Positions 8,671 to 37,925 of a DNA stretch of 64,000 nt are shown piece after piece (positions within the stretch are counted from its first letter, which is position 1; each line of letters opens with the position of its first letter). Position numbers and translations under genes: made by a program. The notes under the pieces are model-generated. The model made no database searches. It was not told where the DNA came from and was given only the letters and a program-made list of their open reading frames with translations. Origin of the DNA: Alistipes sp. (GTDB lineage: Bacteria > Bacteroidota > Bacteroidia > Bacteroidales > Rikenellaceae); the NCBI GenBank assembly GCA_045654345.1, contig JAZOND010000027.1:19889-83888 (forward strand). The letters are read 5' to 3'.

Positions 8671-8672
8671 TT

Positions 8673-18921: not shown

Positions 18922-18975
18922 CGGTGCTAAATTACACTTTTTTTCGCAGACTAACGATAGTTTCGGGAAAAATTG

Positions 18976-18983
18976 TATCTTTG
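18976..18983 (+). promoter_or_regulatory. -7 promoter element for the acetyltransferase-ruvA unit
   Basis: TATCTTTG 22 nt before ATG 19006. Confidence 0.55.
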
Positions 18984-19005
18984 TACTATTAAAAACAGCC
19001 GAACA

Positions 19006-19560: not shown

Positions 19561-19571
19561 CCTAAAATACT

Positions 19572-20162: not shown

Positions 20163-20170
20163 TAGCCAAC

Positions 20171-20238
20171 AGCCAATAGCGCGCACAGCAGATAAAAGTA
20201 ACGAGCGTTACTTTTATCTGCTGTGCGCGCTGCTGGCT
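20171..20238. repeat. Long perfect palindrome (26-bp arms, 2-nt loop); may also act as terminator
   Basis: 20178-20203 is the exact reverse complement of 20206-20231; imperfect extension to 20171/20238. Confidence 0.9.
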
Positions 20239-20253
20239 AAAATCATAGAATGA

Positions 20254-20285
20254 TTTGGAATTTACCGCAATAATTATTATCTTTG
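20254..20285 (+). promoter_or_regulatory. Promoter for the FKBP lipoprotein pair
   Basis: TTTG (20254-57), 20 nt spacer, TATCTTTG (20278-85). Confidence 0.7.
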
Positions 20286-20299
20286 CGCGTTATATGGCT

Positions 20300-20905: not shown

Positions 20906-20918
20906 TACTCTATAGATT

Positions 20919-22484
20919 ATGAAGAATATGAAGATTATAATCACTCTATTACTCTCGCTCTTTGTGTTGAGCTCTTGTGTTAAGGAGCCTGACTACAACC
21001 GCACAGAGCTTGAGGCGCGCTCGCTCAAGGCGTGGATTAAGAAGAATCGTCCCGAGTTGGTAGGCAACTATCAGCAGGAGGGTGGCTACTATGTAGATGT
21101 GCTCAAGTGGGGCGAGGACGACACTCCTGCCAACGGCAATGACTTTGGTACTCAGCCTATTATGGAGCAGGATACCTGCTGGGTGTTCTACAACTTTACA
21201 GGCTACGATATGGACGGCAATGTATTCTCTACCCGTGACGAGATTATTGCCCGTATGCAGGCTACATATACCGACTACACACACTACATTGCTTATGGTA
21301 ATTACTGTGGTAAGGAGGAGTTCTATGCTATTGTCGAGGGTAGCTACTTGGCTTCGCGCAATAAGCTTACGCTGAGTGAGGAGTATATCTCTCGTGCCGA
21401 CAAGCAGTCTATCTGCAAGGGCACAGAGCTTGTTCTGCGCAAGGGTTCAAAGGTGCGCCTCTACCTGCCATCTACTATTGCATATAGCAGCAATGGTTCG
21501 TCGGCTGATGGTGGCTACGAGGGTCAGTATTCATTAGATGCAAGTGTACCTATGATTCTCGATGTAGAGGTTATGCGCGTGGTTAAGAGCCCATCAGACA
21601 ACGAGTTAGACCTTGTTGACGAGTTGGTTAAGCTATGTAACGCCCAGAATGAGCAGACCGTATGGCACCAGATTGAACAGACCGACGAGGAGGACACTGA
21701 CGATGGTGACAATACTGACGACAGCTCTGATACTGAGGATACCGAGAATACTGATGACAAGAAGGAGTATCTCGATGGCATCTATTACAGCACCGACTTT
21801 ACCCCAGCTAACAATCTTACACACTTAAGCTATGGTCGCATTGACCAGGCAGGTATTAACAATCCATACAAGGACTCTGACCGCTATGCCGATATGGCAG
21901 CCTTTGACAAGAAGTTGTGGGATATTCTCAACGAGAAGTTTGCAGACAAGATTAAGCAGACCACTGAACTTGAGGCTGTTGGTCAGGAGGGCGATGCACT
22001 GATTTGGTATGTAGGTCGATTCCTTGACGGCTATATTTTCGACTCAAATATCGACGAGGTGCGCGAGCTTGCCTTTGGTAAGGAGGAGGATTCAACTGTA
22101 GGTGAGTCTATCTCATACTCTGTATCGACAAGCAAGGATGAGTATATCAGCGCGTGGGCACACGGCATTCCTAAGCTACACTATGGTCGCTGGGGTGCTA
22201 TTGTTACCACTTCGGGTTACGCATACGGCTCTGCTGGCGTGGCTGCATCAACAAGCACAACATCAAGTAGCTCAGCAGCCTATAACGCTTTGGCAAACCT
22301 CTATAACTACTATAGTATGATGGGCTCGTCGTATTACAACTCGTATAGCTACTACAACTACTACAACTACTACGGCGGTTATACCAACTACTATGACTAT
22401 AGTGACACAACCACCACTATCGAGACCGAGATTTCACCATATGCTCCACTGCTCTTCTACATCTTCATCGAGCCTAAGGAGTAA
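20919..22484 (+). CDS. Two-domain FKBP-like lipoprotein with acidic linker and Tyr/Ser-rich insert
   Basis: Lipobox LSSC; YNFTGYDMDGNVF and YVGRFLDGYIFDSN FKBP motifs; YAYG...ISPYAPLLFYIFI. Confidence 0.72.
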   Translation: MKNMKIIITLLLSLFVLSSCVKEPDYNRTELEARSLKAWIKKNRPELVGNYQQEGGYYVDVLKWGEDDTPANGNDFGTQPIMEQDTCWVFYNFTGYDMDGNVFSTRDEIIARMQATYTDYTHYIAYGNYCGKEEFYAIVEGSYLASRNKLTLSEEYISRADKQSICKGTELVLRKGSKVRLYLPSTIAYSSNGSSADGGYEGQYSLDASVPMILDVEVMRVVKSPSDNELDLVDELVKLCNAQNEQTVWHQIEQTDEEDTDDGDNTDDSSDTEDTENTDDKKEYLDGIYYSTDFTPANNLTHLSYGRIDQAGINNPYKDSDRYADMAAFDKKLWDILNEKFADKIKQTTELEAVGQEGDALIWYVGRFLDGYIFDSNIDEVRELAFGKEEDSTVGESISYSVSTSKDEYISAWAHGIPKLHYGRWGAIVTTSGYAYGSAGVAASTSTTSSSSAAYNALANLYNYYSMMGSSYYNSYSYYNYYNYYGGYTNYYDYSDTTTTIETEISPYAPLLFYIFIEPKE

Positions 22485-22506
22485 GGGACAACCACGGTTA
22501 AAGAAT

Positions 22507-22542
22507 AAAGAAAAAGCTCAGCGAAAGCTGGGCTTTTTCTTT
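22507..22542 (+). terminator. Intrinsic terminator
   Basis: AAAGAAAAAGCTCAGC-GAAA-GCTGGGCTTTTTCTTT. Confidence 0.85.
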
Positions 22543-22619
22543 GCACTGAAGCCGAGGATAAACAACTCTTGGACTTTCTATATTTTTTCACTACTTTTGC
22601 TTAAGCTAAACCGTATATT

Positions 22620-25094
22620 ATGAAAAAACCTATTTTACTACTTATTTTGGCTGTGCTATCACTTCCGTTATCGGCGCAGTACAAGGTCACCGAGCAGCAC
22701 AAGCAGCGTGCCGCCGAGGTTGTTAAGCAGATGACCCTTGAGGAGAAGATTGACTACATCGCAGGCTATGAGCGATGGTATATCCGCGCCATAGACCGTC
22801 TTGGTCTGCCTGCTGTGCGTATGGCTGACGGCCCGCAGGGTGTGCGCAACAACACCAAGAGTACCCTCTACCCTTCAGGTATTGCTGCAGCGGCAACTTG
22901 GGACACAGAGCTGATAAATCAGATGGGACTCTCGCTGGGTAAGGATGCCCGTGCGCGTGGTGTGCATATTCTGCTCGGCCCTGGTGCCAACATATACCGT
23001 TCACCACTCTGTGGTCGCAACTTCGAGTACTTTGGCGAGGATCCTTTCCTTGCTGGTGAGGTTGCAAGCGCATATATTAAAGGTGTGCAGAGTATGGGCG
23101 TAATGGCCTGCATCAAGCACTTTGCAGGTAACAATCAGGAGTGGGCTCGCCATAGCGTATCGACAGATGTTGACGAGCGTACCCTCAACGAGATATACTT
23201 CCCAGCCTTCGAGAAGGCGGTCAAAGAGGCCAATGTAGCCTCTATTATGACCTCTTACAACCTGCTCAATGGCCAGCACGCCTCTGAGAGCCGATATCTC
23301 AATCAGCAGGTGCTGCGTGGTCAGTGGGACTTTGATGGCTTTGTGATGTCGGATTGGACATCTTGCTACTCGCCTGTGAATGTTATCCGCTGGGGTGTTG
23401 ACCTTGAGATGCCTCTTGCCGAGTGTCTTAAGCCTGAGCTTATCAAGCAGCTTATAGAGCAGGGCGTTCTTGACGAGCGTTCACTCGATGTTAAGTGTCA
23501 GAATATCATCCAGAACATCTTCGCCTTCGAGTTCGACAAGCGCGAGCAGTTAGACAGCACCCTGCCACAGAACAACCCTGAGTGCGACGCTGTGGCACAT
23601 AAGCTCTCGCAGTCAGCAGTGGTTATGCTCAAGAATGAGGGCAACTTCCTGCCGTTCAAGAAGGGTAAGGTTGTTGTCTGCGGCCCTAATGCCGACAAGA
23701 TTGTCACAGGTGGCGGTAGCGGCTTTGTAACTCCGCTATTCTCATACTCTGTGGCTGAGGGAATGTCAAATATCGACAAGCGCATTAAGACTACAGTCAT
23801 CTCTAAGAACACCCTCACCCACCTCGAGGACAGCTTTGCTGATGAGGCGATGACCACTGCAGGCGTCTATGCCGAGTACTACGACAACGATCAGCTGCAG
23901 GGAGCACCTAAGCACACCTTTGTTACCGATAAGGTGGCTATTCGCACCGATGCTATCGAGGCTCACGAGGATCTTGTTATGGAGGGCATATCTACCCGTC
24001 ACACCTTCTACTACAAGCCTAAGAAGGATGAGAACTACGATATGATGGTCAGCAGCAACGACGGCTTCCGCCTCTTTATCAACGACAAAAAGATTGCCGA
24101 CACTTGGGGCAGAGACTCTGGACAGAGTGGTTTTACAAATCTTAGCCTCAAGGCAGACAATGTATATAAGTTCGTTGTCGAGCACCACAATATGTCAGGC
24201 CGCATTGCGCTGGGACTTACTTTCGATGTGCCACCAACAGACGATATGCAGAATGTAGAGCTGTTCCGCAATGCCGACTGCATTGTTGCCTGCCTCGGCT
24301 TTGACAGCTATACCGAGAAGGAGAACTCAGACCGCACCTTCACCCTGCCTCCAGGACAGTTAGCATATCTAAAGTCGATACTCAAGATTAACAATAATGT
24401 GGTGGTTGTGCTCAATGGCGGTGGTGCTATGGAGATGACTCCGTGGATTGACGATGTTAAGGCTGTGCTTATGGCGTGGTACCCTGGTCAGCAGGGAGGT
24501 CTTGCAATCTCGGAGATTATCACAGGTAAAATCTCTCCATCAGGCAAGCTGCCTATCTCTATCGAGGCCCGCCTGGAGGATAACCCGTGCTATCATAACT
24601 ACCACGAGAATGTTGACCGCGTACGCTCACACGCCATCAACCCACACCCACGCGTAGAGTACCGTGAGGGTATCTTTATGGGCTACCGTGGCTACGATAA
24701 GAGTGGTATCAAGCCTCTGTTCCCATTCGGATATGGACTGAGCTATACCACCTTCAACTACTCGAACCTCTCAATCGCCCAGCAGGGTGATAAGTACGCC
24801 GTATGCTTCGATATTACCAACACAGGTAAGGTCGCAGCTGCCGAGGTTGCTCAGGTATATGTTCACGATAACGAGTGCTCACTCATCCGCCCTGCTAAGG
24901 AGCTTAAGGGCTTCAGTAAGGTATACCTCAAGGCTGGAGAGACTCGACGCGTAACCGTAGAGCTCGATGATGAGGCCTTTAGATTCTTCGACCCTATCCA
25001 CCGCAAGTTCGTCGTAGAGCCAGGTGCCTTTACCATCTTCGTGGGCGCATCCTCTGCCGATATCCGCCTGACAGGAGAGCTAAGCGTGAAATAG
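22620..25094 (+). CDS. GH3 beta-glucosidase with PA14 insert and Fn3-like C-terminus
   Basis: MADGPQGVR, GRNFEYFGEDP, IKHFAGN, nucleophile MSDW, WYPGQQGG, FPFGYGLSYT. Confidence 0.92.
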   Translation: MKKPILLLILAVLSLPLSAQYKVTEQHKQRAAEVVKQMTLEEKIDYIAGYERWYIRAIDRLGLPAVRMADGPQGVRNNTKSTLYPSGIAAAATWDTELINQMGLSLGKDARARGVHILLGPGANIYRSPLCGRNFEYFGEDPFLAGEVASAYIKGVQSMGVMACIKHFAGNNQEWARHSVSTDVDERTLNEIYFPAFEKAVKEANVASIMTSYNLLNGQHASESRYLNQQVLRGQWDFDGFVMSDWTSCYSPVNVIRWGVDLEMPLAECLKPELIKQLIEQGVLDERSLDVKCQNIIQNIFAFEFDKREQLDSTLPQNNPECDAVAHKLSQSAVVMLKNEGNFLPFKKGKVVVCGPNADKIVTGGGSGFVTPLFSYSVAEGMSNIDKRIKTTVISKNTLTHLEDSFADEAMTTAGVYAEYYDNDQLQGAPKHTFVTDKVAIRTDAIEAHEDLVMEGISTRHTFYYKPKKDENYDMMVSSNDGFRLFINDKKIADTWGRDSGQSGFTNLSLKADNVYKFVVEHHNMSGRIALGLTFDVPPTDDMQNVELFRNADCIVACLGFDSYTEKENSDRTFTLPPGQLAYLKSILKINNNVVVVLNGGGAMEMTPWIDDVKAVLMAWYPGQQGGLAISEIITGKISPSGKLPISIEARLEDNPCYHNYHENVDRVRSHAINPHPRVEYREGIFMGYRGYDKSGIKPLFPFGYGLSYTTFNYSNLSIAQQGDKYAVCFDITNTGKVAAAEVAQVYVHDNECSLIRPAKELKGFSKVYLKAGETRRVTVELDDEAFRFFDPIHRKFVVEPGAFTIFVGASSADIRLTGELSVK

Positions 25095-25111
25095 CCTACA
25101 GCTATTCAATA

Positions 25112-25158
25112 AAATAGAGCTTACACTTTCAAGCTTGCTTGAGTGTAGGCTCTATTTA
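25112..25158 (+). terminator. Intrinsic terminator of GH3 gene
   Basis: AAATAGAGCTTACACT ... AGTGTAGGCTCTATTT hairpin with T-rich tail. Confidence 0.75.
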
Positions 25159-25292
25159 TTATACTTGGTATAACAAAAGTGGAACTTGGTCGCAAATTCC
25201 ATTTGCTACGATGTGTGCGCAATAATCGGGTTTCCTTGCTAACGCAGAACAACACTAAAGCCAGACTTTTGCACTATTATCCATTCTTCGTA

Positions 25293-25424
25293 CACAATTT
25301 GGCGTCAGAGTCTACACGATGAGTATTATCTGCACTTAAAAACTAACTTTTAAGCGAGGATTTTCAACGCTCGGCATAGAAAACAGCGAAGGGCTGTATG
25401 TGCACCACAATTTGGCGTCAGAGT
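25293..25424 (+). repeat. 19-bp exact direct repeat CACAATTTGGCGTCAGAGT
   Basis: Copies at 25293-25311 and 25406-25424; the second is the left end of the structured element. Confidence 0.85.
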
Positions 25425-25535
25425 GGTGTAGTTGCGGTGCATCGTGAAAAAAAGCAGCGACGGATAGTACAAGAAGTACAGCCGTCGCTGATATTTAAGG
25501 GATGTGACGCAAATGCGCCACTATCACGCCAAATT
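25352..25535 (+). repeat. Structured dispersed repeat, copy 2 (127-nt long-hairpin core 25409-25535)
   Basis: Same stem register and length as 12784-12911 with compensatory substitutions; right arm overlaps the rubrerythrin stop codon. Confidence 0.85.
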
Positions 25536-26085
25536 ATTTAAAGTAGCGGTTGTAGAGCCCCTCAAAACCCTTTCCGTGACGAGCCTCATCCTTAGCCATC
25601 TCGTGAACGGTGTCGTGTACGGCGTCGAGGTTCTGCTCCTTAGCCATACGAGCAAGACGGAACTTATCCTCACAAGCACCACTCTCGGCGTTCATACGCT
25701 TGAACAGGTTGGTCTTAGTATCCCAAACTACCTCACCGAGGAGCTCTGCAAACTTTGCAGCGTGCTCTGCCTCCTCCCAAGCGTAACGCTTGTAAGCCTC
25801 AGCAATCTCAGGATAGCCCTCACGGTCTGCCTGACGGCTCATAGCAAGGTACATACCTACCTCGGTGCACTCACCCATAAAGTGGTTCTTAAGACCCTCA
25901 AGCAACTCCGGGCTTGAACCAAGACCATCACCAAGAACATGCTCGGTAGCAAACTCGAGGTTACCGCTCTGCTCCTCAATCTCTACAAACTTATCAGCAG
26001 GAACCTTACAAAGAGGACAACGCTCAGGAGCCTCATTTCCCTCGTGAATATAACCACAAACTGTGCAACGAAATTTCTTATTCAT
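25534..26085 (-). CDS. rbr: Reverse rubrerythrin (N-terminal rubredoxin + ferritin-like diiron domain)
   Basis: CTVCGY..CPLC, then [36 protein letters not shown]. Confidence 0.9.
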
Positions 26086-26131
26086 AGTGTTAAAGTTTTA
26101 AATGTTTTACTTCTGTTTTATTTTCCTACTG

Positions 26132-26162
26132 CAAAGGTAAAAACATTTTTCGAAATATCAAA
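26132..26162 (-). promoter_or_regulatory. Promoter of rubrerythrin
   Basis: Minus-strand TTTG (26162-59), 19 nt spacer, TACCTTTG (26139-32). Confidence 0.72.
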
Positions 26163-26201
26163 ATTCTTTTTCCTTATACTATAATAAGTTTTACTTATCT
26201 G

Positions 26202-27122
26202 CTACTGGTTTATACACTGGAGCAGTACTTGTTCGATTTGCGGTATGGAGGTTGAATCCTTGACCAGCACTCGTTTATCGGCATCAAGCAGGTAGAGTGC
26301 AGGTATTGCACGCAGGTCATAGAGACGGTTTTTCTCCACTACGCAGCCCTTATCGTAGCCATTAATCCAATTTGCAGGCAGTGGGTGAGCCTTCCAGAGC
26401 GAGATATCCTGATCGGGATAGAGAGCCACCACCTTGAGGTGTTTTTCGGCTATAAGCTGGCATATAAGCTGCGAGGAGACAATCTGCTGCTGAATATCGC
26501 GACACATTGGGCAGCCTGGGTTATTTATATATATAAGTATAAAGTCGGCCTTGACAGAGTATAGGTTCTGCGAGCGACCCGATGCTGTAGTAAATCGGAA
26601 GTCGTTAGCCTTCTGTAGGATTCTGTTCTGCGAGGCCAGAGCAAGGTCGTACTCGGGCACCATCTTCTCATACTCATCGTAGAATGGAGCTGCAATCTGT
26701 GCCTCGAGGACGGGGATATATAGCTCATCGCTACGCAGTGGCGAGTTAGGGTCGTGGAAGAGCTTCTCGGACATAGCAACGAAGTAGTCGAGCATAGCGC
26801 GTGACGAGGATGCCTTATCCATAAGCCTCTTAATTGGCTCGCCATTATATGGACCCACATATGATGCCACATACTCGGCATAGACACGCATCATCTCGGT
26901 GCTATCGGCACGCTGACAGAAGAGGGTATCGGCAAAATCGAAGCGATCCCAATAGTGCTCAGCCATCCACTCTCCGACCTCAGAGTCAACAAGATGCGCT
27001 GGCGGGATAACATAGCTAAAGCGGTAGCTCTTCTTTGGCTGCTTGGTCTCTTTACCCTTCTGCTGCGCACCACCGCAAGCTACAAGGCAGAGTAGGCAAA
27101 ATATAGTTACAATCTGTTTCAT
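26202..27122 (-). CDS. DUF5106-like lipoprotein with C-terminal thioredoxin-like domain
   Basis: Lipobox LVAC; HYWDRFDF, LFHDPNSPLRSDELYIP, NPGCPMC, YDLRAIPALYLLD. Confidence 0.75.
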   Translation of the reverse strand: MKQIVTIFCLLCLVACGGAQQKGKETKQPKKSYRFSYVIPPAHLVDSEVGEWMAEHYWDRFDFADTLFCQRADSTEMMRVYAEYVASYVGPYNGEPIKRLMDKASSSRAMLDYFVAMSEKLFHDPNSPLRSDELYIPVLEAQIAAPFYDEYEKMVPEYDLALASQNRILQKANDFRFTTASGRSQNLYSVKADFILIYINNPGCPMCRDIQQQIVSSQLICQLIAEKHLKVVALYPDQDISLWKAHPLPANWINGYDKGCVVEKNRLYDLRAIPALYLLDADKRVLVKDSTSIPQIEQVLLQCINQ

Positions 27123-27126
27123 ACAT

Positions 27127-27153
27127 ACAAAAAGAGGCTGTTTTCACAGCCCC
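27127..27153 (-). terminator. Intrinsic terminator of TPR gene
   Basis: Minus strand GGGGCTGT-GAAA-ACAGCCTC followed by TTTTTG. Confidence 0.75.
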
Positions 27154-27175
27154 ATAACTCTCTATGTGAGTACTA

Positions 27176-28153
27176 TTACTTAAGGTTCTCAAGAGCAGCC
27201 TTAGCAGCCTCAACGCTACCACCAGCAGTAACCTTCTGGAGGTAAGATACAGCCTTATCCTTAAGAGCAGCGTCGGTGTTACCACCAGCGTTGTACTTAG
27301 CGTTGTAAGCAGCACCGATGATGAAGTATACATCGCTCTGACCATCCTCAGTAGTCTGTGCAAGAGCAGCAGTCTCACCAAGCTCGATAACCTTAGCGTA
27401 GTCCTTCTTGTTGTTGTAAGCCTGGAGACGAATCTTCTCAGCAAGTGCAGATGCAGGATCTGTAGCAAGCATAGACTCAGCCATAGCGATGATACCGTCC
27501 TGATCACCAGCCTGCTGGAGACGAGCAACCTCGTTATTGGTGTACATAGCCATCTTCTCCTTAGCCTCAGCGATAGCCTCAGCATACTTAGTTGCGTTCA
27601 TACCGCAGATGTTAGTACAAACATCCATACCCTTCTGGTACTCACCGAGCTTAAAGTAGCTCTCAGCAAGGTTGAGTGCCATACCTGTATTACGCTTGTT
27701 TGCAGCATAGCCCTTCTCAAATACAGCTACAGCAGCAGCGTAGTCGCCAGCGTTGAACGCCTCACCACCCTGAGCCTGGTAAACCTTAGCCAGAATCTGG
27801 TTAGCCTTAGTCTTTGCAGTGCTATCGCCCCAAAGCTCAGCCTTCTCAGCAGCAGTTGAGAGGTACTTAACAGCCTCGTCCCACTTCTTTGCACCGGCAG
27901 CAGCAGTACCCAGACGCTGGTAGCAAGTAGGGATATACTTCTTTGAAGTAGCTACAAGGCTGAGAACATTGCTATCCTCAGAGTCCACACCGCCCTTAAC
28001 AACAGACTCGAAGTTCTCAAGAGCCTTTGTCCAATTCTTTGCCTGAAGAGCAGCAGCTGCCTCGTTGTACTTAGCAGTAATCTCGCTTGCGCTCTGTGCC
28101 GATACCATTGCAACAGAGAACAATGCAACAGCCATCAAAACAAGTTTTTTCAT
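27176..28153 (-). CDS. Secreted tetratricopeptide-repeat protein
   Basis: Signal peptide MKKLVLMAVALFSVAMVSA; Ala-rich TPR helices; strongly biased codon usage. Confidence 0.75.
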   Translation of the reverse strand: MKKLVLMAVALFSVAMVSAQSASEITAKYNEAAAALQAKNWTKALENFESVVKGGVDSEDSNVLSLVATSKKYIPTCYQRLGTAAAGAKKWDEAVKYLSTAAEKAELWGDSTAKTKANQILAKVYQAQGGEAFNAGDYAAAVAVFEKGYAANKRNTGMALNLAESYFKLGEYQKGMDVCTNICGMNATKYAEAIAEAKEKMAMYTNNEVARLQQAGDQDGIIAMAESMLATDPASALAEKIRLQAYNNKKDYAKVIELGETAALAQTTEDGQSDVYFIIGAAYNAKYNAGGNTDAALKDKAVSYLQKVTAGGSVEAAKAALENLK

Positions 28154-28169
28154 AGTTGAAATCAGTAAT

Positions 28170-28202
28170 TTATTAAGTTTTTATTAAGTTTTTATTAAGT
28201 TT
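28170..28202 (-). repeat. 3 x 11-bp exact tandem repeat (AAACTTAATAA on the coding strand) in a 5' leader
   Basis: TTATTAAGTTT at 28170, 28181 and 28192. Confidence 0.9.
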
Positions 28203-28239
28203 AAATTTTGTTCTTTGCTTAAAAAAGCCCAACAAGCTG

Positions 28240-28271
28240 CAAAGGTAACGCTTTTACCTTAACTTTGCAAA
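28240..28271 (-). promoter_or_regulatory. TPR-gene promoter overlapping the 3' end of the deaminase CDS
   Basis: Minus-strand TTTG (28271-68, inside codons F-A), 20 nt spacer, TACCTTTG (28247-40). Confidence 0.7.
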
Positions 28272-28700
28272 AAAATCGGTCATAAGTTTCTCACATTCAT
28301 CAGATAGCACGCCACTAACCACCTCCGTGCGCGGATGGAGCAGCACTTTACCAAAACGAGCATAGCCTCGCTTAGGATCTGAAGCTCCATAGACAATTCT
28401 GCCAATCTGACTCCACGCAAGGGCTCCTGCGCACATAACACACGGCTCCACAGTCACATAGAGAGTGCAGTCCTGCAGATACTTACCACCCAGAGCCGAG
28501 GCTGCTGCAGTGATTGCCTGCATCTCAGCGTGGGCCGTAACATCGGTTAGCGTCTCAACCAAATTGTATGCGCGGGCAATAACCTTTCCCCCCGCAACAA
28601 CCACCGCACCGACAGGTACCTCGTCACTATCGAACGCCTTTTGCGCCTCATTTATTGCAAAACGCATATATTTTTCGTCTGTTTGGTGCATACTATCCAT
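28254..28700 (-). CDS. tadA: TadA-like nucleoside/tRNA adenosine deaminase
   Basis: EVPVGAV, HAEMQAI, TLYVTVEPCVMC zinc motif. Confidence 0.8.
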   Translation of the reverse strand: MDSMHQTDEKYMRFAINEAQKAFDSDEVPVGAVVVAGGKVIARAYNLVETLTDVTAHAEMQAITAAASALGGKYLQDCTLYVTVEPCVMCAGALAWSQIGRIVYGASDPKRGYARFGKVLLHPRTEVVSGVLSDECEKLMTDFFAKLR

Positions 28701-28731
28701 ATTTTTTATATCTTTGTGGGTTAAAACACCG

Positions 28732-28763
28732 CAAAGTTAACAAGATAATACAAACAATACAAA
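28732..28763 (-). promoter_or_regulatory. Promoter of the deaminase gene
   Basis: Minus-strand TTTG (28763-60), 20 nt spacer, TAACTTTG (28739-32). Confidence 0.7.
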
Positions 28764-28964
28764 TAAAATAAGGGAGGTTCTATAAATTATTCGCGGCGAT
28801 TTTGGAGGGTATTTCGTGGCTATTTCGCAACAATCTTGAGGGAGCAATAACCTATTGTAACCGAGAGAATGTGCAAAATAGACGGAAAAAGAGCCAAAAG
28901 CGGCCGAAATAGAATTTACCCTAAAACGAAAAGAGACAATTTAATAATTTATAGAACATTCCTT

Positions 28965-30719
28965 ATGTACAGAAGTCACACCTGCGGAGAACTTCGTTCC
29001 GCAAATATCAATCAGACCGTCACTCTGGCGGGTTGGGTGCAGAAGGTACGCAACCTGGGAGCTATGGCATTTATTGACCTGCGTGACCGCTACGGCATCA
29101 CTCAGATTGTTGTTGAAGAGGGCTCGGCAGAGCAGACCAAAGAGGCTGCAGCACGCCTGGGTCGTGAGTATGTTATCCAGGTTACCGGCCGCGTAATTGA
29201 GCGTAGCAGCAAGAACCCTAAGATGGCTACCGGCGACATTGAGGTTGTTGCTGAGAATATCACTATCCTCACCGAGGCTGTTACACCTCCATTTACTATC
29301 GAGGAGCACTCTGACGGCGGTGATGACCTTCGTATGAAGTACCGCTATCTCGACCTTCGTCGTCCGCCTCTGCAGCGCAATATGATTCTGCGTCACAAGA
29401 TGGCCCAGGAGATTCGTCGTTTCCTTGACAGCGAGGGCTTCCTTGAGATTGAGACACCATACCTTATCAAGTCTACCCCAGAGGGTGCGCGCGACTTTAT
29501 CGTACCAAGCCGTATGAATCCTAACGAGTTCTACGCCCTGCCACAGTCGCCACAGACACTCAAGCAGCTGCTTATGGTGGCTGGTTACGACCGCTACTTC
29601 CAGATTGTTCGCTGCTTCCGTGACGAGGACCTGCGTGCTGACCGTCAGCCTGAGTTTACACAGATTGACTGCGAGATGGCTTTTGTTGAGCAGGAGGATG
29701 TACTCTCTATCTTCGAGCGTTGGGCTAAGCATATGTTCAAGAGCGTACTTGGCGTTGAGTTTAACGAGCCACTGCGCCGTATGCCTTGGATTGAGGCTAT
29801 GGAGAAGTACGGTTCTGATAAGCCAGACCTTCGCTTCGGTATGGAGTTTAATGACATTACCGACCTTGCACACGGCCACAATTTCTCAGTCTTTGACGAC
29901 GCCGAGTATGTTGTAGGTTTCGCTGCAACAGGTTGCGCATCATACACCCGTAAGCAGATTGATGCTCTGACAGAGTTTGTTAAGCGTCCACAGGTTGGTG
30001 CTAAGGGTCTTGTATGGATCCGTCTTGAGGAGGGTGGCAACATCAAGTCATCTATCGACAAGTTCTTCGATGCTGAGTCGCTGCGCGCTATTGCTAATCG
30101 TCTGGGCGCAAAGGAGGGTGACCTCTGCCTTGTTATGTGCGGCAAGAAGTTTAAGGTTCTCACACAGCTCTGTACCCTGCGTCTTGAGGTTGGTCAGCAG
30201 CTTGGTCTGCGCGATCCGTTCAAGTTCGCTCCGCTGTGGGTTGTTGACTTCCCTATGTTCGAGTGGGACGAGGAGACTGAGCGTTTCTACGCTATGCACC
30301 ACCCATTCACCTCTCCTAAGCCTGAGGATGTGCAGTACCTTGAGTCTGATCCAGGTCGCGTTCGCGCAAATGCATACGACTTTGTCTGCAACGGTACTGA
30401 GCTTGGTGGCGGTAGTATCCGTATCCACGATGCACAGCTGCAGCAGACTATCTTCAAGTGCCTCGGATTTACTCCAGAGCAGGCTGAGGCTCAGTTTGGC
30501 TTCCTTATCAACGCCTTCAAGTTCGGTGCACCACCACACGGAGGTCTGGCATTCGGCTTTGACCGCCTCTGCTCTCTGTTCGGTGGCTCTGAGTCTATCC
30601 GTGACTACATCGCCTTCCCTAAGAACAATGCAGGTCGCGATGTGATGCTCGATGGTCCATCACCTGTAGCACCAGAGCAGCTCGAGGAGCTCTACCTCTC
30701 ACTTGTAAAACCTGAGTAA
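28965..30719 (+). CDS. aspS: Aspartyl-tRNA synthetase
   Basis: [55 protein letters not shown]. Start reset to 28965. Confidence 0.97.
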
Positions 30720-30727
30720 GTATAGTT

Positions 30728-30758
30728 AAGGCTGCAGAGAGTTGCAGCCTTTTCTTTT
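30728..30758 (+). terminator. Intrinsic terminator of aspS
   Basis: AAGGCTGCA-gagagt-TGCAGCCTT followed by TTCTTTT. Confidence 0.8.
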
Positions 30759-30768
30759 GTTATAGTAA

Positions 30769-31368
30769 ATGAAGAACTTTATATCTATGTCTGTGTTCGC
30801 AGGTCTGCTGATTGGTATTGGCGGACTTGTATACCTGCGCGTTGGTGGCGTGGCGGGAGCTGTGCTCTTTGCCTTTGGACTGCTGAGCGTTGTTATGTGT
30901 GGTGCGCAACTCTTTACGGGTAAGGCGGGATTTCTGCCATATAAGGATGCCGCAAAGCTCGTTGTAATGATAGCCCTCAACGCTGTGGGCTGCGCTATAG
31001 CGGCTACTATAGCCTCATATTGCACCTCGGATGCTGTTACATCGGGCCTTGATGCGATACTCTCTGCACGCCTTACTGCCCCGTGGCATAAGCTGCTTAT
31101 AACCTCGGCTGGTACGGGTATGATTATGACCCTCGCGGTTTATGGCGCACGACAGAAACACTATCTGCCACTGCTCTTTGGCGTTCCCGTGTTTATCCTC
31201 TGCGGTCTACCCCACTGCGTGGCTGATGCCTTCTACTACGCCCTTGCACTCTTTTGTGGTAAGGCCGAGTGGGCACTACTTTCAGCGTGGCTTTGGGCCA
31301 TTGCCGGCAACTACATCGGCTGCAACCTACCCCGATGGTTTATGGGTAAGCAGTTTGATAATCAGTAG
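30769..31368 (+). CDS. Short formate/nitrite transporter (FNT) family channel
   Basis: AGLLIGIGG, GAVLFAFGL, QLFTGK, FILCGLPHCVAD, GNYIG; about 6 TM. Confidence 0.75.
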   Translation: MKNFISMSVFAGLLIGIGGLVYLRVGGVAGAVLFAFGLLSVVMCGAQLFTGKAGFLPYKDAAKLVVMIALNAVGCAIAATIASYCTSDAVTSGLDAILSARLTAPWHKLLITSAGTGMIMTLAVYGARQKHYLPLLFGVPVFILCGLPHCVADAFYYALALFCGKAEWALLSAWLWAIAGNYIGCNLPRWFMGKQFDNQ

Positions 31369-31503
31369 ATGATAAAGAGTATTTAATTGCGCTATTTACC
31401 CCAGAAAGCAACCAAAGTTGTTTTGTCGGTATGTTTAGTAATATTTCCATAAAATTGGGTATCGACAACAGCAACTAAAGCACAAATTAAACTCTCAACT
31501 AAC

Positions 31504-31541
31504 AAAATAGGGATAGCCTCGCAAGAAGCTATCCCTATTTT
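31504..31541. terminator. Bidirectional terminator
   Basis: AAAATAGGGATAGC ... GCTATCCCTATTTT between convergent genes. Confidence 0.8.
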
Positions 31542-31556
31542 ATTATTACACTTGAT

Positions 31557-33545
31557 TTATTCACCTTTGACGGTAAGCATAAATCCACCACCTGGAGCAA
31601 GCTCTACGCTGATAACACCACTCTCTGGCAGGGTGATGCTCTGACGAGTGTAGTCAGTACCGTCGACTGAGGCACGCTTGCCATCTGCGAAGATATCAAC
31701 CTCTGCACCAGCAGCAAGTCCCAGCTGGCTGAGGTCTACCTCAAGGGTACGGGCATCCCAGTTGGTCATACCGCCCACATACCAAGTCTTTCCGCTACGG
31801 CGAGCAGTGATAACATACTGTCCAATCTTACCATCAAGCACAACACTCTGCTCCCAAACGGTTGGCACAGAGGCAATAAACTCGGCGCACTCAACATTTT
31901 TGCGATAGTTGGAAGGAGAGTCGCAGAGCATAGAGAGAGGAGAGTAGAATACTGCATAAGCAGCCAGCTGGTGGCAGCGAGTACCTTGACTCATCGGCTG
32001 CTTATTATTTGGCTGGTACTTATCCTTAGTGGCGTTGAGCATTGCGCCCTGAGTGTAGTCGATTGGGCCTGCAACCATACGGATAAACGGAATGGTCACA
32101 TCGTACTCCATCTGGTCGGTATCAGGCTTGCGCCACTTCATCTGCTCCAGACCGTGTACAGCCTCGAAGTTAACCACATTAGGGTATGTTCTATTCAGAC
32201 CCGCAGGCTTAGCGCAGCCGTGAAAATCTACCATCAGCTTATACTTAGCGCAAGTCTCAGCCGCGCGGTAGTAGAACTGGGTCATAGTCTGGTCATCGCG
32301 ATCCATAAAGTCGATTTTAAAGCCCTTTACGCCAAGCGCAGAGTAGTGCTGGCATACACGCTCCATATCGACATTAAAGGCGTTATAGCCTGCCCAGAGG
32401 ATAATTCCCACCCCCTTCTGTGCCGCATAGTCAAGGATGCCCTGCATATCAATAGCAGGAACAATACTCAGCAAGTTATTCTCATACTTAGTCGCCCAGC
32501 CCTCGTCGAGAATCACATACTCAACACCATACTGCGCTGCAAAGTCGATATATGCCTTATATGTCTCGGTGTTCACACCAGCCTTAAAGTTCACATCGGT
32601 AAGTCCCCAATGGTTCCACCACTCCCAAGCAACCTTACCAGGTACAATCCACGAAGCATCCTCTACGCGAGAAGGCGAAGCGAGGCGATAGATCATATCC
32701 GAGTTGGCAATCTTAGTGTCGTCATCAGAGATAATCAACACACGCCAAGGGAAGGCTCTTGTACCCTGGCACTTAGCGATATAGCTCTCTCGTGCAGTGA
32801 CAATGCCCTGCAACTTATTGTGTCCGCCAACAACCTCCTCGGCAGGCACAGGTGCAAGTTCTCCCTCAAGAGCGCAGTCGCTGTCGGCATTGCCGATAAA
32901 CATACCAGGATAGTTCTCAACATCGCTCTCGGCAATAAGAACCTTAACGCCGTCGACATCTACAACAACAGGAGTAAAAGCCACTCGAGCAGCATCTACC
33001 TCGTTGATAGGCAGATACTTATAGAGATGCTCAAAAGATGTAAAGTACTTATCCTTCTTAGTCCCTGTCAGGTTATTGTAGGCAATCCAGCAGTTATAAG
33101 GCTTATCAAAAGCAAGGCTATAGACCTCATTCTGAACGGTCATCTCGCCATTACGAGTAGTTGAGAAGCGATACACCACGCCCTCATCATAGGCACGGAA
33201 CTCGATAGCCGAGCGGTCTGCAAACTCAACCTTCAGGGCGTTGTAGTTATCTGCAACCTCATTGCGAGTATAGAGCTGGGCTGCGATAGTCTTATTCACA
33301 GAGTAAGGTGTCACCTTGCGCACCTTACCGGCACCAAGGGTTGTACCATCGGTAAGAACCATTGCCGCAGTGGCCTTACTGACCACCACATTGCCATTAT
33401 AGGCCACCGTATAACTTGTACCGCCATCGACGGTAACCTCAGCCACCACCTTACCATCAGGCGAGGTAAGTGTATAACTGCCCTCCTTTGCGCAAGAGCA
33501 GAAAATAACACTCAGAAGTGCCAAAACAGATAAAATTCTCTTCAT
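31557..33545 (-). CDS. Glycoside hydrolase family 97 lipoprotein
   Basis: Lipobox FCSC; PGKVAWEWW, YIDFAA, LDEGW, GFKIDFMD, EAVHGLE, GPIDYTQG. Confidence 0.92.
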   Translation of the reverse strand: MKRILSVLALLSVIFCSCAKEGSYTLTSPDGKVVAEVTVDGGTSYTVAYNGNVVVSKATAAMVLTDGTTLGAGKVRKVTPYSVNKTIAAQLYTRNEVADNYNALKVEFADRSAIEFRAYDEGVVYRFSTTRNGEMTVQNEVYSLAFDKPYNCWIAYNNLTGTKKDKYFTSFEHLYKYLPINEVDAARVAFTPVVVDVDGVKVLIAESDVENYPGMFIGNADSDCALEGELAPVPAEEVVGGHNKLQGIVTARESYIAKCQGTRAFPWRVLIISDDDTKIANSDMIYRLASPSRVEDASWIVPGKVAWEWWNHWGLTDVNFKAGVNTETYKAYIDFAAQYGVEYVILDEGWATKYENNLLSIVPAIDMQGILDYAAQKGVGIILWAGYNAFNVDMERVCQHYSALGVKGFKIDFMDRDDQTMTQFYYRAAETCAKYKLMVDFHGCAKPAGLNRTYPNVVNFEAVHGLEQMKWRKPDTDQMEYDVTIPFIRMVAGPIDYTQGAMLNATKDKYQPNNKQPMSQGTRCHQLAAYAVFYSPLSMLCDSPSNYRKNVECAEFIASVPTVWEQSVVLDGKIGQYVITARRSGKTWYVGGMTNWDARTLEVDLSQLGLAAGAEVDIFADGKRASVDGTDYTRQSITLPESGVISVELAPGGGFMLTVKGE

Positions 33546-33679
33546 AATATTCTCTATAGGTTTAGTATAAATACAATCGTTGGTACTATTTTCCTCTTTA
33601 GATAGGTTCTATAAAATCTCAGAATGCGCCTTTTGGGTATAAAGATATACAATAAAATGGAAATTTACAATTTATTTAT

Positions 33680-33687
33680 TACCTTTG
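33680..33687 (+). promoter_or_regulatory. -7 element immediately upstream of rarA
   Basis: TACCTTTG 6 nt before ATG 33694, implying a nearly leaderless mRNA. Confidence 0.5.
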
Positions 33688-33693
33688 CGCATT

Positions 33694-34971
33694 ATGGCAG
33701 CACCACTTGCAGAGAGGCTTCGCCCTCAGAAACTTGATGATTATATCGGTCAGGATCACCTGGTCGGTCCTACGGGTGTGTTCCGTCGCTTTATAGAGAG
33801 CAAGAATGTACCATCATTCATTCTCTGGGGCCCTCCTGGCGTGGGTAAGACCACCCTTGCAAGGATTGTTGCCACAGAGCTTGGTCGCCCATTCTACACC
33901 CTCTCGGCTGTAACTTCGGGTGTGAAGGAGGTGCGCGAGGTTATCGAGACGGCTAAGCGTCAGCAGTTCTTCAGCTCGGCTACTCCGCTGCTATTTATCG
34001 ACGAGATTCACCGCTTCAACAAGTCCCAGCAGGACTCGCTCCTCGGTGCTGTGGAGAAGGGAGAGGTGGTGCTTATCGGTGCCACTACAGAGAATCCATC
34101 TTTCGAGGTCATCACGCCTCTGCTCAGTCGCTGTCAGGTGTATACCCTCAAGTCTATGGACGAGGGCCAGCTTGCCGAGCTGCTTAATCGCGCCATAACC
34201 ACCGACACAGAGCTACAGAAGCGTACAATTACCGTCGAGCAGACCGACGCCCTCTTCCGCTTTGCAGGTGGCGATGCGCGTAAGTTGCTCAATATCATTG
34301 ACATAATCACCAGCGCAACTGATGGCAATATTATCCTTAACAACCAAACCGTCACCGATGCGCTACAGCAGAACATAGCCCTCTACGACAAGAATGGCGA
34401 GCAGCACTACGATGTAATCTCGGCATTTATCAAGTCTGTGCGCGGCTCAGACCCCAATGCAGCCATATACTACCTTGCCCGTATGCTTGCGGGCGGTGAG
34501 GAGCCGAGGTTTATTGCCCGTCGCCTTGTAATTCTCGCCTCTGAAGATATAGGTCTTGCAAATCCTAACGCGCTACTGCTTGCTAATGCCTGCTTCGACA
34601 CGGTGCATAAGATTGGTATGCCCGAGGCGCGTATAACCTTAGCCGAGACTACCATATATCTGGCTACATCGCCTAAGAGCAATAGTGCCTATGCTGCTAT
34701 AAATGAGGCTCTTGCCTTTGTCAATAAAGATACTACAAACCGTCCTGTGCCACTCCATCTGCGCAATGCCGTTACCGACCTTATGCGCAAAGAAGGGTAT
34801 GCTGCCGACTACAAGTATGCGCACAGCTATGAGGGCGGCTTTGTCGAACAGGAGTTTATGCCTGATAGCCTTGCCGGCACGCAGTTCTACCATCCGATAA
34901 CCACAAACCCGACTGAGCAGAAGATTGCAGCACGCATAACTGAGTTGTGGGGTGACAAATACAACAAATAA
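33694..34971 (+). CDS. rarA: Replication-associated recombination protein A (MgsA/RarA)
   Basis: [59 protein letters not shown]. Confidence 0.95.
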
Positions 34972-34972
34972 T

Positions 34973-35896
34973 ATGAAAAGACTCTTTACACTATTTGCAA
35001 CTATAGCTGTTGCCCTTACAGCAACTGCTCAAACCTCACACCTCTACGCCGAGCGTCAGGGCGAGAAGCTATACTTTGACCACTACACAGCCGTAGGTGT
35101 CGAGGGTCTGCGTCCCTGCGTGATATTTGCCTTTGGCGGTGCCTTTGCTCGTGGAACCAAGGCCGATAAGGGCTATCTGCCCTACTTCAAGGCTCTGACA
35201 GAGGCTGGATATGATGTGGTCAGCATCGACTACCGCAAGCACCTTGCTAATGGTATCGGAGACTCAGGACTTAGGGGCGCAGTTATCACTATGAAGAATG
35301 CTGTCGAGTACGCTGCCGAGGATATGCTCAGCGCAACCAAGGTGGTGCTTGATAATGCTGATAAGTGGAATATTGACACCTCCAAGATTATCGCGTGTGG
35401 CTCGAGTGCAGGTGCTATCACCTCTCTGCAGGCCGAGAATATGATCTGCAATGCAGACCCTCGTGCAGCACAACTTGGCGAATTCAACTATGCAGGTGTG
35501 GTGAGCTTCGCGGGTGCTATCTTCTCCGTTTCGGGCAAGCCGAAGTGGGATAAAACTCCGTGCCCTATGCTCCTATTCCACGGAAATGCAGACAGCAATG
35601 TGCCCTACAATAAGGCCTCGGCTATGGGCGTAGGATTCTTTGGTTCTAAGTTTATCAGCAAGCAGCTCGCAAAGATGGGCGTACCTCATTGGTTCTACTC
35701 GGCGCAGTACCGCGACCACGATATGGCTGGCGACCCGATGTATGACAACATTGAGGAGATTACAGCCTTTATCAACCGCGTAGTAGTTAAGGGTCAGCAG
35801 ATTACAGTCTTGCAGGAGGTGAGCGACAATAAATATCCGAAGGTCAAAACCCGATTCAAGGTAAGCGATTATCTATCAAGCAATTACAGCAAGTAA
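34973..35896 (+). CDS. Secreted alpha/beta hydrolase (carboxylesterase-like)
   Basis: Signal peptide; FGGAF oxyanion, GSSAG nucleophile, HGNAD, downstream His. Confidence 0.82.
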   Translation: MKRLFTLFATIAVALTATAQTSHLYAERQGEKLYFDHYTAVGVEGLRPCVIFAFGGAFARGTKADKGYLPYFKALTEAGYDVVSIDYRKHLANGIGDSGLRGAVITMKNAVEYAAEDMLSATKVVLDNADKWNIDTSKIIACGSSAGAITSLQAENMICNADPRAAQLGEFNYAGVVSFAGAIFSVSGKPKWDKTPCPMLLFHGNADSNVPYNKASAMGVGFFGSKFISKQLAKMGVPHWFYSAQYRDHDMAGDPMYDNIEEITAFINRVVVKGQQITVLQEVSDNKYPKVKTRFKVSDYLSSNYSK

Positions 35897-36405
35897 TGAA
35901 GCGTATAGGCGTAATATCTGACACCCACAACACCTTTGACGACTGCCTGAAACTCTTTCTCAAGGATGTTGACGAAATTTGGCACGCAGGCGATATTGGC
36001 AGCCTCGAGTGCGCAAACCAGATAGCGCAATTTAAGCCCCTACGCGCCGTATTTGGCAATATAGACAACACCTCCGTAAGGTACAACTACTCAGAGTTCA
36101 ACTGCTTTGAGTGCGAAGGCGTCAAGGTGCTTATGACCCACATTGGCGGCTATCCGCGCCACTACCACCCTAAGGCTCTGCAGAAGATTCAGGAGACAAA
36201 GCCAACTATATTTATCGCAGGCCACTCGCACATCCTCAAGGTTATCTACGACAATGTCTACGACCTGCTACACATAAACCCAGGTGCTGCAGGATGCTAC
36301 GGATTCCATAATGTCCGCACCGCCATACGCTTTACTATCGACGGGTCTGACATCCGCGATATGGAAATCGGCAACTGGGACCGCGACAAAAAGACTGCGT
36401 GGTAG
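35896..36405 (+). CDS. YfcE-like metallophosphoesterase
   Basis: ISDTH, HAGDIG, FGNID, THIG, AGHSH, NPG. Confidence 0.9.
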   Translation: MKRIGVISDTHNTFDDCLKLFLKDVDEIWHAGDIGSLECANQIAQFKPLRAVFGNIDNTSVRYNYSEFNCFECEGVKVLMTHIGGYPRHYHPKALQKIQETKPTIFIAGHSHILKVIYDNVYDLLHINPGAAGCYGFHNVRTAIRFTIDGSDIRDMEIGNWDRDKKTAW

Positions 36406-36444
36406 CCGAAATCTGCCCATTGCAAACATAGCATCGTCACAAGT

Positions 36445-36472
36445 AAAACAAAGCCCGCTTTGTCAAGCGGGC
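36445..36472 (-). terminator. 8-bp stem/GACA-loop hairpin (terminator; possible DGR target-recognition hairpin)
   Basis: Minus strand GCCCGCTT-GACA-AAGCGGGC followed by TTTGTTTT, 28 nt after the stop codon. Confidence 0.75.
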
Positions 36473-36500
36473 AATATTATTAAATAGATAAATAGTTAAT

Positions 36501-37925
36501 TTAAAAAGCGAGGACAGCACGCACTGCGTAATAGTAGAACTTACTGGTGTCGTTGTCATAGCCACTCGAGAAAACGACGTAGTACGCGAGGTTACTGCTG
36601 CACTCAGACGAAGACCAATACCAATCACCACTCTTCCAGAAGTTACCTTTATCAAGTTTATCTATTAAATAGACATTGAGTTCCGACATATTTTTCTGGA
36701 TAGTCTGCAACTCTTGTTTTGCCGGCAAATACCATCCTTCGCCCAAATCGGCACACCACTTAAAGGCAGGATACATACTCTCCCAACCCTGTATAGCCTT
36801 GACTACTGCCATATTCTTTGCTCCGTCAGTCTCGCTACTTGCACCTACTCGGCGTTTGCGCTCTTTCTTATCGGAACACCATTGTAATTTTTCCGGAGAC
36901 TGATTCATACTTACTATCTTACCGTGCTTGCCGTCAGCAGAAACCTCAAAGACTACACCCTCCTTGCCATTTTCGTTGTAGTAATCGCCTACCTTATATC
37001 GTTTTTCTGATACGTCAGGAGTTGAAGCCGATGACGAGCTTGCGGGTCTGTCAAATGGAGATAGTCGCAAATCTTGTTTAAAGAATATGCTATTGCGATG
37101 TACGGCGATAGTCTGCTCTGCCGCGGTTGTGCCGAACTTGAGTTTTAGCTGGTGTGTTCCCGAGGCAACATCGGGTATAGAGAGTTGATTGTTGCTATCT
37201 GTGATACCTTTATAATTACCGTCAACAAACACCTCCACATCAGGCATATTGGACATAACTACAATCGAGTAGCTTTGTGTCGGTGCAGCAAGGTTAATAT
37301 CGACCTTAAAGGCTATACTGCCACGATGCACGACAATATTCTGTTCAGCCACATCGTTGCCAATCTTCAGTTTCAAGCGGTGAGAGCCTGGAATGACATC
37401 GTGTATAGAGAGTTGATTGTTTTTATCGGTATTACCCTGATAGCAATCATCAAGATAGACCTCCACATCGGGCATATTAGAGCTGACAACTATAGAATAC
37501 AACTGGTTTAGTCGCGCCATCATCTGATACACCTTGTTACCCTCAAGGTTGAGACAGACCTCGTTACTCTCGCCGAAGTCGGGGCTTTGCACATAGAAGC
37601 GTGTGTTTGGCTTGGCTGTCATCTCAAGAATCAGCACATTGTCAAAATATTCAGCTACATACTGGCGAACAAGGTCAGTATTTGACAGAAACTTAACCGC
37701 CAGTGCATCAACCTCGGCACGATTCATATTGGCAAACTTTATCTTTACTCGCGCGCACGCATTGCGAGATGCATCCTTTGCTATAGGGTCGATATTTACG
37801 CCCGAAAGCGGATCATCCTGAACAGGACGGAAAGTGCTCTGGTCGAGAATAATTGAGTGCTCGACCTGCGCCGTAGCAGCAAGGAAGGCAAGCAATACTA
37901 CAAATAGGGTTAACAGTCTCTTCAT
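36501..37925 (-). CDS. Secreted protein: N-terminal domain + 2 PEGA-like repeats + DUF1566/C-type-lectin-like C-terminal domain
   Basis: Signal peptide; duplicated SNMPDVEV..D..Y.G.T repeats; GEGWYLPAKQEL and YWSSSE...VRAVLAF. Confidence 0.78.
   Translation of the reverse strand: MKRLLTLFVVLLAFLAATAQVEHSIILDQSTFRPVQDDPLSGVNIDPIAKDASRNACARVKIKFANMNRAEVDALAVKFLSNTDLVRQYVAEYFDNVLILEMTAKPNTRFYVQSPDFGESNEVCLNLEGNKVYQMMARLNQLYSIVVSSNMPDVEVYLDDCYQGNTDKNNQLSIHDVIPGSHRLKLKIGNDVAEQNIVVHRGSIAFKVDINLAAPTQSYSIVVMSNMPDVEVFVDGNYKGITDSNNQLSIPDVASGTHQLKLKFGTTAAEQTIAVHRNSIFFKQDLRLSPFDRPASSSSASTPDVSEKRYKVGDYYNENGKEGVVFEVSADGKHGKIVSMNQSPEKLQWCSDKKERKRRVGASSETDGAKNMAVVKAIQGWESMYPAFKWCADLGEGWYLPAKQELQTIQKNMSELNVYLIDKLDKGNFWKSGDWYWSSSECSSNLAYYVVFSSGYDNDTSKFYYYAVRAVLAF

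Follow-up and report, generated by a model that had tools for sequence, protein, structure and literature searches.

The 64,000-nucleotide stretch of Alistipes sp. DNA analysed here (hereafter the window; C27:19889-83888 of a draft assembly with 28 contigs and 2.1 Mb, 94% complete) contains a minus-strand gene whose last codons look as if they had been rewritten by a diversity-generating retroelement (DGR). This raises the questions of where the corresponding reverse transcriptase (RT) and template repeat (TR) are located and whether the gene is still one of their targets. A preliminary description of the window had proposed the DGR variable region from the sequence alone, and its account of the reading frame was exact. 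The open reading frame (ORF) ends in ...YWSSSECSSNLAYYVVFSSGYDNDTSKFYYYAVRAVLAF followed by a stop codon, with the tail YWSSSE-CSSNL-AYYVVFSSG-YDNDTS-K-FYYY-AVRAVLAF. After the Glu of this tail, 22 of 25 codons end in C or T (the exceptions are GCG, TCG and AAG), compared with 55% of the other 441 codons of the gene (one-sided binomial p = 5e-4).

Neither a template nor an RT is present in the 64 kb, as had been reported: blastn of the variable repeat (VR) against the window's own contig gave chance-level matches only, and an RVT_1 profile search of the whole genome returned a single match (81 bits), on contig C23. An adenine-rich near-copy of the VR lies in the same place, beside the RT and an accessory gene, bAvd. 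This TR encodes IWSSSE-NNNNN-AYNINFSNG-NDNNNN-K-NNNN-AVRAVLAF, nearly the same as the template that had been predicted from the window (E-NNNNN-AWNVNFSNG-NNNNNN-K-NNNNx-VRAV), and a scan for Asn codons identified it as the only Asn-codon-rich, template-like segment of the genome. In an ungapped alignment of 113 nt, the window VR and the TR differed at 22 of 43 TR adenines and at none of the 70 other bases. Over the full 115 nt, none of 72 non-adenine positions was changed (Fisher p = 4.7e-12). These adenine-only differences bear out the proposed variable region, and we consider it almost certain that the 3' end of the gene is a genuine DGR variable repeat and the gene a non-adjacent (trans) target written by the DGR.

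The same comparison was extended to other VRs of the genome and to a related DGR. VRs on contigs C23 (in cis to the cassette), C25 and C20 differ from the TR in the same manner (Table 1), and by sequence one TR thus appears to serve at least four targets: the window gene on C27, the cis target on C23, and those on C25 and C20. As a control, the window VR was compared with the TR of the nearest related DGR (L021, whose RT is 82% identical), to which it shows 8/71 non-adenine mismatches; since it shows none to the TR of its own genome, we conclude that it was written from the present-day TR. An explanation without any DGR, in which DUF1566 tails diverged by ordinary paralogy and pyrimidine-ending codons reflect codon or amino-acid bias, could draw on the many paralogous PEGA, DUF1566 and FGE-sulfatase genes of this genome, but it is refuted by these counts and by the related-TR control and retains practically no credence, because all 22 of 22 differences fall on template adenines (p = 5e-12), the pattern is repeated in three other copies, and the matching C23 segment is non-coding-like, Asn-saturated and placed between bAvd and RT.

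A further copy, on contig C15, is degenerate. It terminates a 775-aa paralogue with two DUF1566 domains (C15:7186-9561, plus strand), and some of its non-adenine mismatches to the TR, such as GAC to GTG, are common to L014, an allele of the window gene described below. This suggests that the C15 VR was written by a different or older TR variant. The L021 TR was considered as the source of the non-adenine differences of L014 and C15, and was rejected because 7/71 and 9/71 non-adenine mismatches respectively separate them from it.

The cassette on C23 has the composition expected of a DGR. The RT lies directly 3' of the TR in an intact ORF with IGNLTSQ and YVDD motifs, and [ILV]GxxxSQ is a signature of DGR RTs. 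Its nearest solved structure is a 328-aa RT (entries 8ub7-8ube, E = 1.4e-26), which we take to be the Bordetella DGR enzyme bRT; the best group II intron RT reached 3.8e-9, and retron RTs were also far behind. No NCBIfam model scored above its cut-off for the RT. The 114-aa ORF of the cassette was identified as bAvd by Pfam PF22296 (80.3 bits, cut-off 40), while its score against NCBIfam DivGenRetAVD (57.9 bits) lies under the equivalog cut-off of 80. The RT has stayed intact since it diverged from that of the related species carrying L021, to which it aligns without gaps, and the synteny of the cassette is kept there (PEGA target, bAvd, RT, GAPDH). At 90% identity the RT forms a cluster with a single member.

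Two peculiarities of this locus affect its annotation. The TR is in frame within a long ORF running into the RT (1051..2448 of L001, the C23 locus), with an in-frame GTG in the 3' end of the TR, and several database homologues of the RT carry a precomputed Lcl_C match because the TR is in frame within the RT ORF; an automatic annotation will accordingly describe a fusion of the RT with a peptide resembling DUF1566. In addition, the start of C23 and the end of C25 (C23:1-884 and C25:291866-293467) encode nearly identical protein, NGALKGTGRWSGMLASGTYIFEARKAGHKSS... Because the assembly is interrupted within repeated copies of target paralogues, the cis target is incomplete and C23 and C25 stay unlinked.

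The preliminary description had offered a remote target and a frozen relic as alternatives for the window VR. The first stands. The contig extends for 41 kb on one side of the VR and 56 kb on the other without reaching the cassette, which was assembled on a different contig, and the two are thus at least ~41 kb apart; as a minimum drawn from unlinked contigs of a draft assembly, this distance does not establish the more than 100 kb from the RT by which Wu et al. (2018) define remote targets (PMC5758913). The second became less likely. The window VR looks, from sequence comparison, like a live or very recently live target and not a decayed relic, because it matches the present TR perfectly outside adenines, the RT, Avd and TR are intact, and alleles differ mostly in the VR. 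Other ENA metagenome assemblies contain, at the same syntenic locus, the allele L014/L015 (protein P0124); it departs from the window gene at 29/115 VR positions (25%) and at 60/1431 positions outside the VR (4%). The metagenome comparison further relied on assembled Logan contigs, which break or swap at the VR: in those of runs X2 and X8 the flanks align and a 67-68-nt block (36529/30..36596) is replaced by as many other letters. Exact-pattern scans for the VR flanks separated by 75 N gave no match in JGI metagenome contigs (locus-specific pattern) or in GTDB genome contigs (general pattern), and a DNA search of 40 related genomes returned paralogues without a clear orthologue of the whole gene.

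Some observations weigh against a live trans target. The differences between alleles, seen in assembled contigs only, could date from past activity. L014 shows 6/72 non-adenine differences from the TR of this genome; a variant TR in that strain is the likely cause, but the TR of the L014 strain was not found, nor was its RT in the protein collection searched. Finally, C23 and C27 are unlinked in the draft, which makes the ~41 kb from VR to cassette a minimum. If the VR were a relic, it would have been written in the past and have ceased to be a substrate, through loss of recognition elements or silencing of the RT, leaving a fixed C-terminus. No within-sample polymorphism is shown by the contigs, and the degenerate C15 copy (9/70 non-adenine mismatches) indicates that targets of this family do decay. 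An old relic should nevertheless show non-adenine changes or drift of the TR, whereas the window VR has none over 115 nt relative to the present TR (against 8/71 with the related one), in a gene that differs by about 4% from allele L014 outside the VR and in a genome where RT, Avd and TR are all intact. We therefore regard a frozen relic as very unlikely, and judge from the alleles and the TR match that the window VR is probably still being diversified.

The preliminary description had also likened the hairpin downstream of the gene to DGR target-recognition hairpins. Its 8-bp stem, GACA loop of the GRNA type and 28-nt spacing are as described; the recognition role became the less likely one, a terminator being favoured since the hairpin is part of the locus backbone and is missing from other targets. 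Folded as DNA, it reaches -10.6 to -11.5 kcal/mol (z = -3.8 compared with shuffles). Its geometry would agree with a recognition hairpin or cruciform like that of Bordetella BPP-1, on which efficient homing into this remote site would depend: published elements have GC-rich stems of 7-10 bp, 4-nt GRNA loops on the sense strand and a position 4-34 bp from the VR (PMC3240598), and the stem, the loop and the 28-30 nt from the VR end are all inside these ranges. Moreover, GRNA loops on either strand occur in 3 of the 65 perfect GC-rich hairpins of the genome with 8-bp stems and 4-nt loops, and apart from the window (C27) the stem sequence recurs only behind the C15 VR, so that each of its two occurrences in the genome follows a VR of the DUF1566 type.

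The behaviour of the other targets and alleles points away from recognition. A weak 5-bp stem with a TTTA loop is all that accompanies the cis VR, and the VRs of C25 and C20 have no hairpin, yet adenine-only mutagenesis is just as clean in all of them; L019, a locus of another species whose VR is of the same TR type, lacks such a hairpin as well. The window and the FGE-sulfatase-type allele L016 cease to be homologous at 37060 and are so again from exactly 36472, where the stem has its first base. L016 has the same stem with the loop TACG, 126 nt past its stop codon, and a third type of allele (L020) has a related stem with the loop CTCG. In the window, TTTGTTTT comes after the hairpin, the genes on either side converge on it, and on each strand it is scored as an intrinsic terminator. 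It is thus most likely a terminator shared by the convergent genes, a reading that we rate well above that of a recognition element, which is unlikely. The hairpin downstream of the C15 VR has the same stem sequence as that of the window, but with an 11-bp stem and a 5-nt loop.

Other sequences around the VR are candidates for such signals. The GC-rich invariant segment at its 3' end is a candidate for the GC-rich part of an element resembling the initiation of mutagenic homing (IMH) site, the comparison with the Bordetella IMH being based on PMC5758913 and PMC3240598. Beyond it, the AT-rich motif TAAATTAAC(T/A)ATTTAACAATTTAA is found downstream of the VRs of C27, L014, C23 (cis), C15 and L019, at the point where the TR diverges. 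By its distribution this motif may be the VR-specific half of an IMH-like element, or merely a shared 3' untranslated region.

As a whole, the explanation that combines a genuine VR, a trans target of the C23 cassette, live or very recent activity and a hairpin that is most likely a terminator is very probably correct. Following the established DGR model, as inferred for this genome, the TR would be transcribed from the C23 cassette (cis target, bAvd, TR, RT), and an RT-Avd complex would copy the transcript into cDNA, misincorporating opposite template adenines. The mutagenised cDNA would then replace the VR, turning the 17 Asn (AAY) codons of the TR into NNY codons on what would be the ligand-binding face of a C-type-lectin-fold domain, itself presumably displayed by a secreted PEGA-domain surface protein.

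Table 1. Coordinates and properties of the target gene, its variable repeat and flanking elements in the window, and of related features on other contigs of the assembly. Positions without a contig name refer to the window.
Feature	Position	Strand	Description
DGR target gene	36501..37925	-	ORF, 474 aa; product in order: signal peptide, N-terminal domain common to paralogue family, two PEGA domains, Ser-rich linker, DUF1566/Lcl_C-like C-type-lectin-fold domain ending in VR
Two PEGA beta-sandwich repeats	37098..37496	-	~aa 144-276; Pfam PF08308, two matched stretches, 37.6 bits, E = 2e-9
Modelled C-terminal 180 aa	36504..37043	-	Residues 1-13 disordered, then short beta-unit, then C-type-lectin-like (Lcl_C/DUF1566) fold
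VR	36503..36617	-	115 nt, homologous to TR on contig C23 (C23 ~1440-1554)
VR mutable core	36530..36602	-	First to last substituted adenine; 17 AAY codons and other A-containing codons in TR
GC-rich invariant 3' VR segment	36508..36527	-	GCAGTGCGTGCTGTCCTCGC; identical in TR and all four clean VRs
AT-rich spacer	36473..36502	-	AAATTAACTATTTATCTATTTAATAATATT; just after VR
Perfect 8-bp GC-rich hairpin, GACA loop	36453..36472		GCCCGCTT-GACA-AAGCGGGC; loop on sense strand of the gene; 28 nt past stop codon, then TTTGTTTT, between convergent genes
DGR cassette, locus L001	C23		3' end of PEGA/DUF1566 gene (cut by contig start), 114-aa bAvd ORF, TR, RT, GAPDH
Cis VR	C23		21/43 TR adenines changed, 0/70 other bases
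C25 VR	C25		21/43 TR adenines changed, 0/70 other bases
C20 VR	C20		Internal in its protein; 17/43 TR adenines changed, 2/70 other bases, only at extreme 3' edge
C15 VR	C15		22/43 TR adenines changed, 9/70 other bases; degenerate
FGE-type tails	C10:28217-29143 and 31370-31573; C15:22205 and 174462; C16:31360; C18:41636; C20:5919-6139; C25:292409; C1:284681		VR-like tails of FGE-sulfatase domains

The encoded protein begins with a signal peptide (MKRLLTLFVVLLAFLAATAQ...), and at least nine paralogues in the genome share its N-terminus. The C-terminus matches Pfam Lcl_C/DUF1566 at 28.4 bits, below the cut-off of 34.9, which paralogues exceed with 37.4 and 50.2 bits; an NCBIfam profile search gave no above-threshold name for the protein. 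The last 180 residues were modelled with AlphaFold2 from 25 sequences (mean predicted local distance difference test score, pLDDT, 81; predicted template modelling score, pTM, 0.80). Searched against the PDB with Foldseek, the model matched first the C-terminal domain of Legionella Lcl (8q4e, E = 4.6e-6, target-normalised TM-score 0.69), second the Bacteroides ovatus fimbrial protein 4eps, and then many C-type lectin-like proteins. The C-terminus is thus predicted by the model to adopt a C-type lectin/Lcl_C fold with the VR at its end, and the last ~38 modelled residues form the VR-encoded surface. This scaffold is the expected one for DUF1566/'CLec2' targets of DGRs (PMC5758913).

The target is the final gene of a co-directional run of housekeeping genes, a setting fairly described earlier as 'within a housekeeping operon'. 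Encoded 5' of it are phosphatidylserine decarboxylase, an AI-2E-family transporter, a flavokinase-like protein, LuxS and a PNP_UDP_1/MtnN-like nucleosidase (Pfam labels of neighbouring genes were taken from syntenic loci). The target gene starts 11 nt past the nucleosidase gene, and a metallophosphoesterase gene runs towards it from the other side. The flavokinase-like protein (123/126 aa) and LuxS (156 aa) have separate ORFs in the window and in L018, whereas in some related contigs (L016/L017/L020) they are called as one fused 279-aa product upstream of the PNP_UDP_1 gene, which may be a difference in gene calling or a real fusion. Homologues of the window protein are named Alistipes sp. or Rikenellaceae bacterium, and the sequencing runs that contain the locus are gut and bovine gut metagenomes.

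At this same syntenic locus, strains with 96-99% identity over the first 288 aa of the protein differ in its C-terminal module (window 36473..37059 against L016, at 4867..5713, and against L017, L018 and L020). The window and P0124 have the DUF1566 VR, P0006/P0007/P0009/P0126 have an FGE-sulfatase domain ending in a hypervariable tail of classic DGR-like form, and P0001 has another DUF1566 tail, rich in A-containing codons. FGE-sulfatase tails are also found elsewhere in the genome, where about ten such domains end in the VR-like pattern RVLRGGSW......CRVS.R....P..R....GFRL. At their constant positions they are consistent with a single implied template rich in Asn, RVLRGGSW-NNNA(R/N)NCRVSNRNNNNP(D/N)NRNNNNGFRL; no second TR or RT for them was detected in the 94%-complete assembly by blastn, Asn-codon scan or RVT_1 search. 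These tails could be orphaned targets of a lost DGR, or their DGR could simply be unassembled. Two genes, C20:5919-8447 and C25:291866-293467 (both on the minus strand), each combine a clean DUF1566-type VR of the C23 TR with an FGE-sulfatase VR-like tail; in the C20 protein the FGE domain comes after the DUF1566 VR, which is internal. These two proteins would be diversified at two lectin-fold sites from two different templates.

We put forward, tentatively and as a possibility less likely to be right than wrong, that the lectin-fold C-terminal module is an exchangeable cassette, and that targets in this lineage could be recognised through an AT-rich motif on the target side and not through a GC hairpin. 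If so, the locus formed by the mtnN-like gene, the target and the metallophosphoesterase gene would bear the DUF1566 VR of this DGR, an FGE-type VR needing another TR, or an apparently non-diversified DUF1566 tail. Breakpoints would fall at the linker and at the terminator hairpin, and a module swap would move the protein from one DGR to another. The roughly ten FGE-type VR tails would then be orphans whose DGR has been lost or is missing from the assembly, beside C20 and C25 with both types of VR.

Several known systems resemble this one in part. The VR of TvpA, the target of the Treponema denticola DGR, is of the FGE-sulfatase type. That system likewise consists of one chromosomal, non-phage Avd-TR-RT cassette with several scattered VRs (the non-adjacent/remote class, PMC5758913), assigned by adenine-only mismatches and located in surface-exposed targets of C-type-lectin fold; unlike it, the present DGR resides in a small-genome (2.1 Mb) Rikenellaceae-like gut or rumen bacterium, and its targets are PEGA-domain proteins of a large paralogue family with VRs of the DUF1566/CLec2 type. 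In the Legionella pneumophila DGR (LdtA) and the 'category d' DUF1566/CLec2 targets of Wu et al. (2018), the extreme C-terminus likewise shows a weak DUF1566 match that the VR overlaps. The motif ...WSSSE..A(Y/W)...F..G.....K....VRxV found here aligns with CLec2-type VRs, and the cassette has Avd, as in Legionella. The window protein differs from LdtA in its N-terminus, made of PEGA repeats and a type I signal peptide, and the C23 cassette, to which the search for it was confined, lacks the MSL (MutS-like) accessory gene of Legionella.

Closer in taxonomy and habitat are the Bacteroides DGRs acting on Type V pilus tip adhesins (bioRxiv 10.1101/2024.11.15.621889; 4eps, BACOVA_04982), which also belong to gut Bacteroidota and diversify a DUF1566-like CLec domain; in contrast to these adhesins, the window target has PEGA repeats and no fimbrial (FimA-like) domains, and that study makes no mention of PEGA, Alistipes, Rikenellaceae or remote targets. 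Bordetella phage BPP-1 (mtd-avd-TR-brt) shares the target-avd-TR-RT order, adenine-specific mutagenesis, a GC-rich invariant 3' end of the VR after which VR and TR diverge, and a GRNA-loop hairpin like that downstream of the window VR. Here, however, the element is chromosomal and has multiple targets, and the hairpin is not common to the others. Wu et al. (2018) catalogued 51 DUF1566-type DGRs; in the same catalogue, non-adjacent targets occur throughout the RT tree, with as many as seven for the Treponema element (PMC5758913).

A canonical target-avd-TR-RT DGR with a DUF1566/CLec2 VR and extra non-adjacent targets has therefore only features that are already catalogued (PMC5758913), and the current understanding of DGRs is unchanged, since remote targets and DUF1566 VRs are both documented there. 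Less ordinary, as side observations, are the PEGA target family of at least nine members, the two dual-VR targets without a TR for their FGE tail, and the locus module that differs between close strains. The finding contributes a chromosomal DGR with multiple targets, from a Rikenellaceae-like bacterium of gut or rumen that has a small genome, where it would diversify a family of PEGA-domain surface proteins; the potential repertoire of the window VR comes to ~15^17 = 1e20 variants. It also illustrates that a trans target can be recognised from sequence alone through the NNY codon periodicity of a DUF1566 tail. This may be of use for the annotation of genes otherwise named 'PEGA domain-containing protein', and for work on the variation of ligand-binding surface proteins in gut Bacteroidota.

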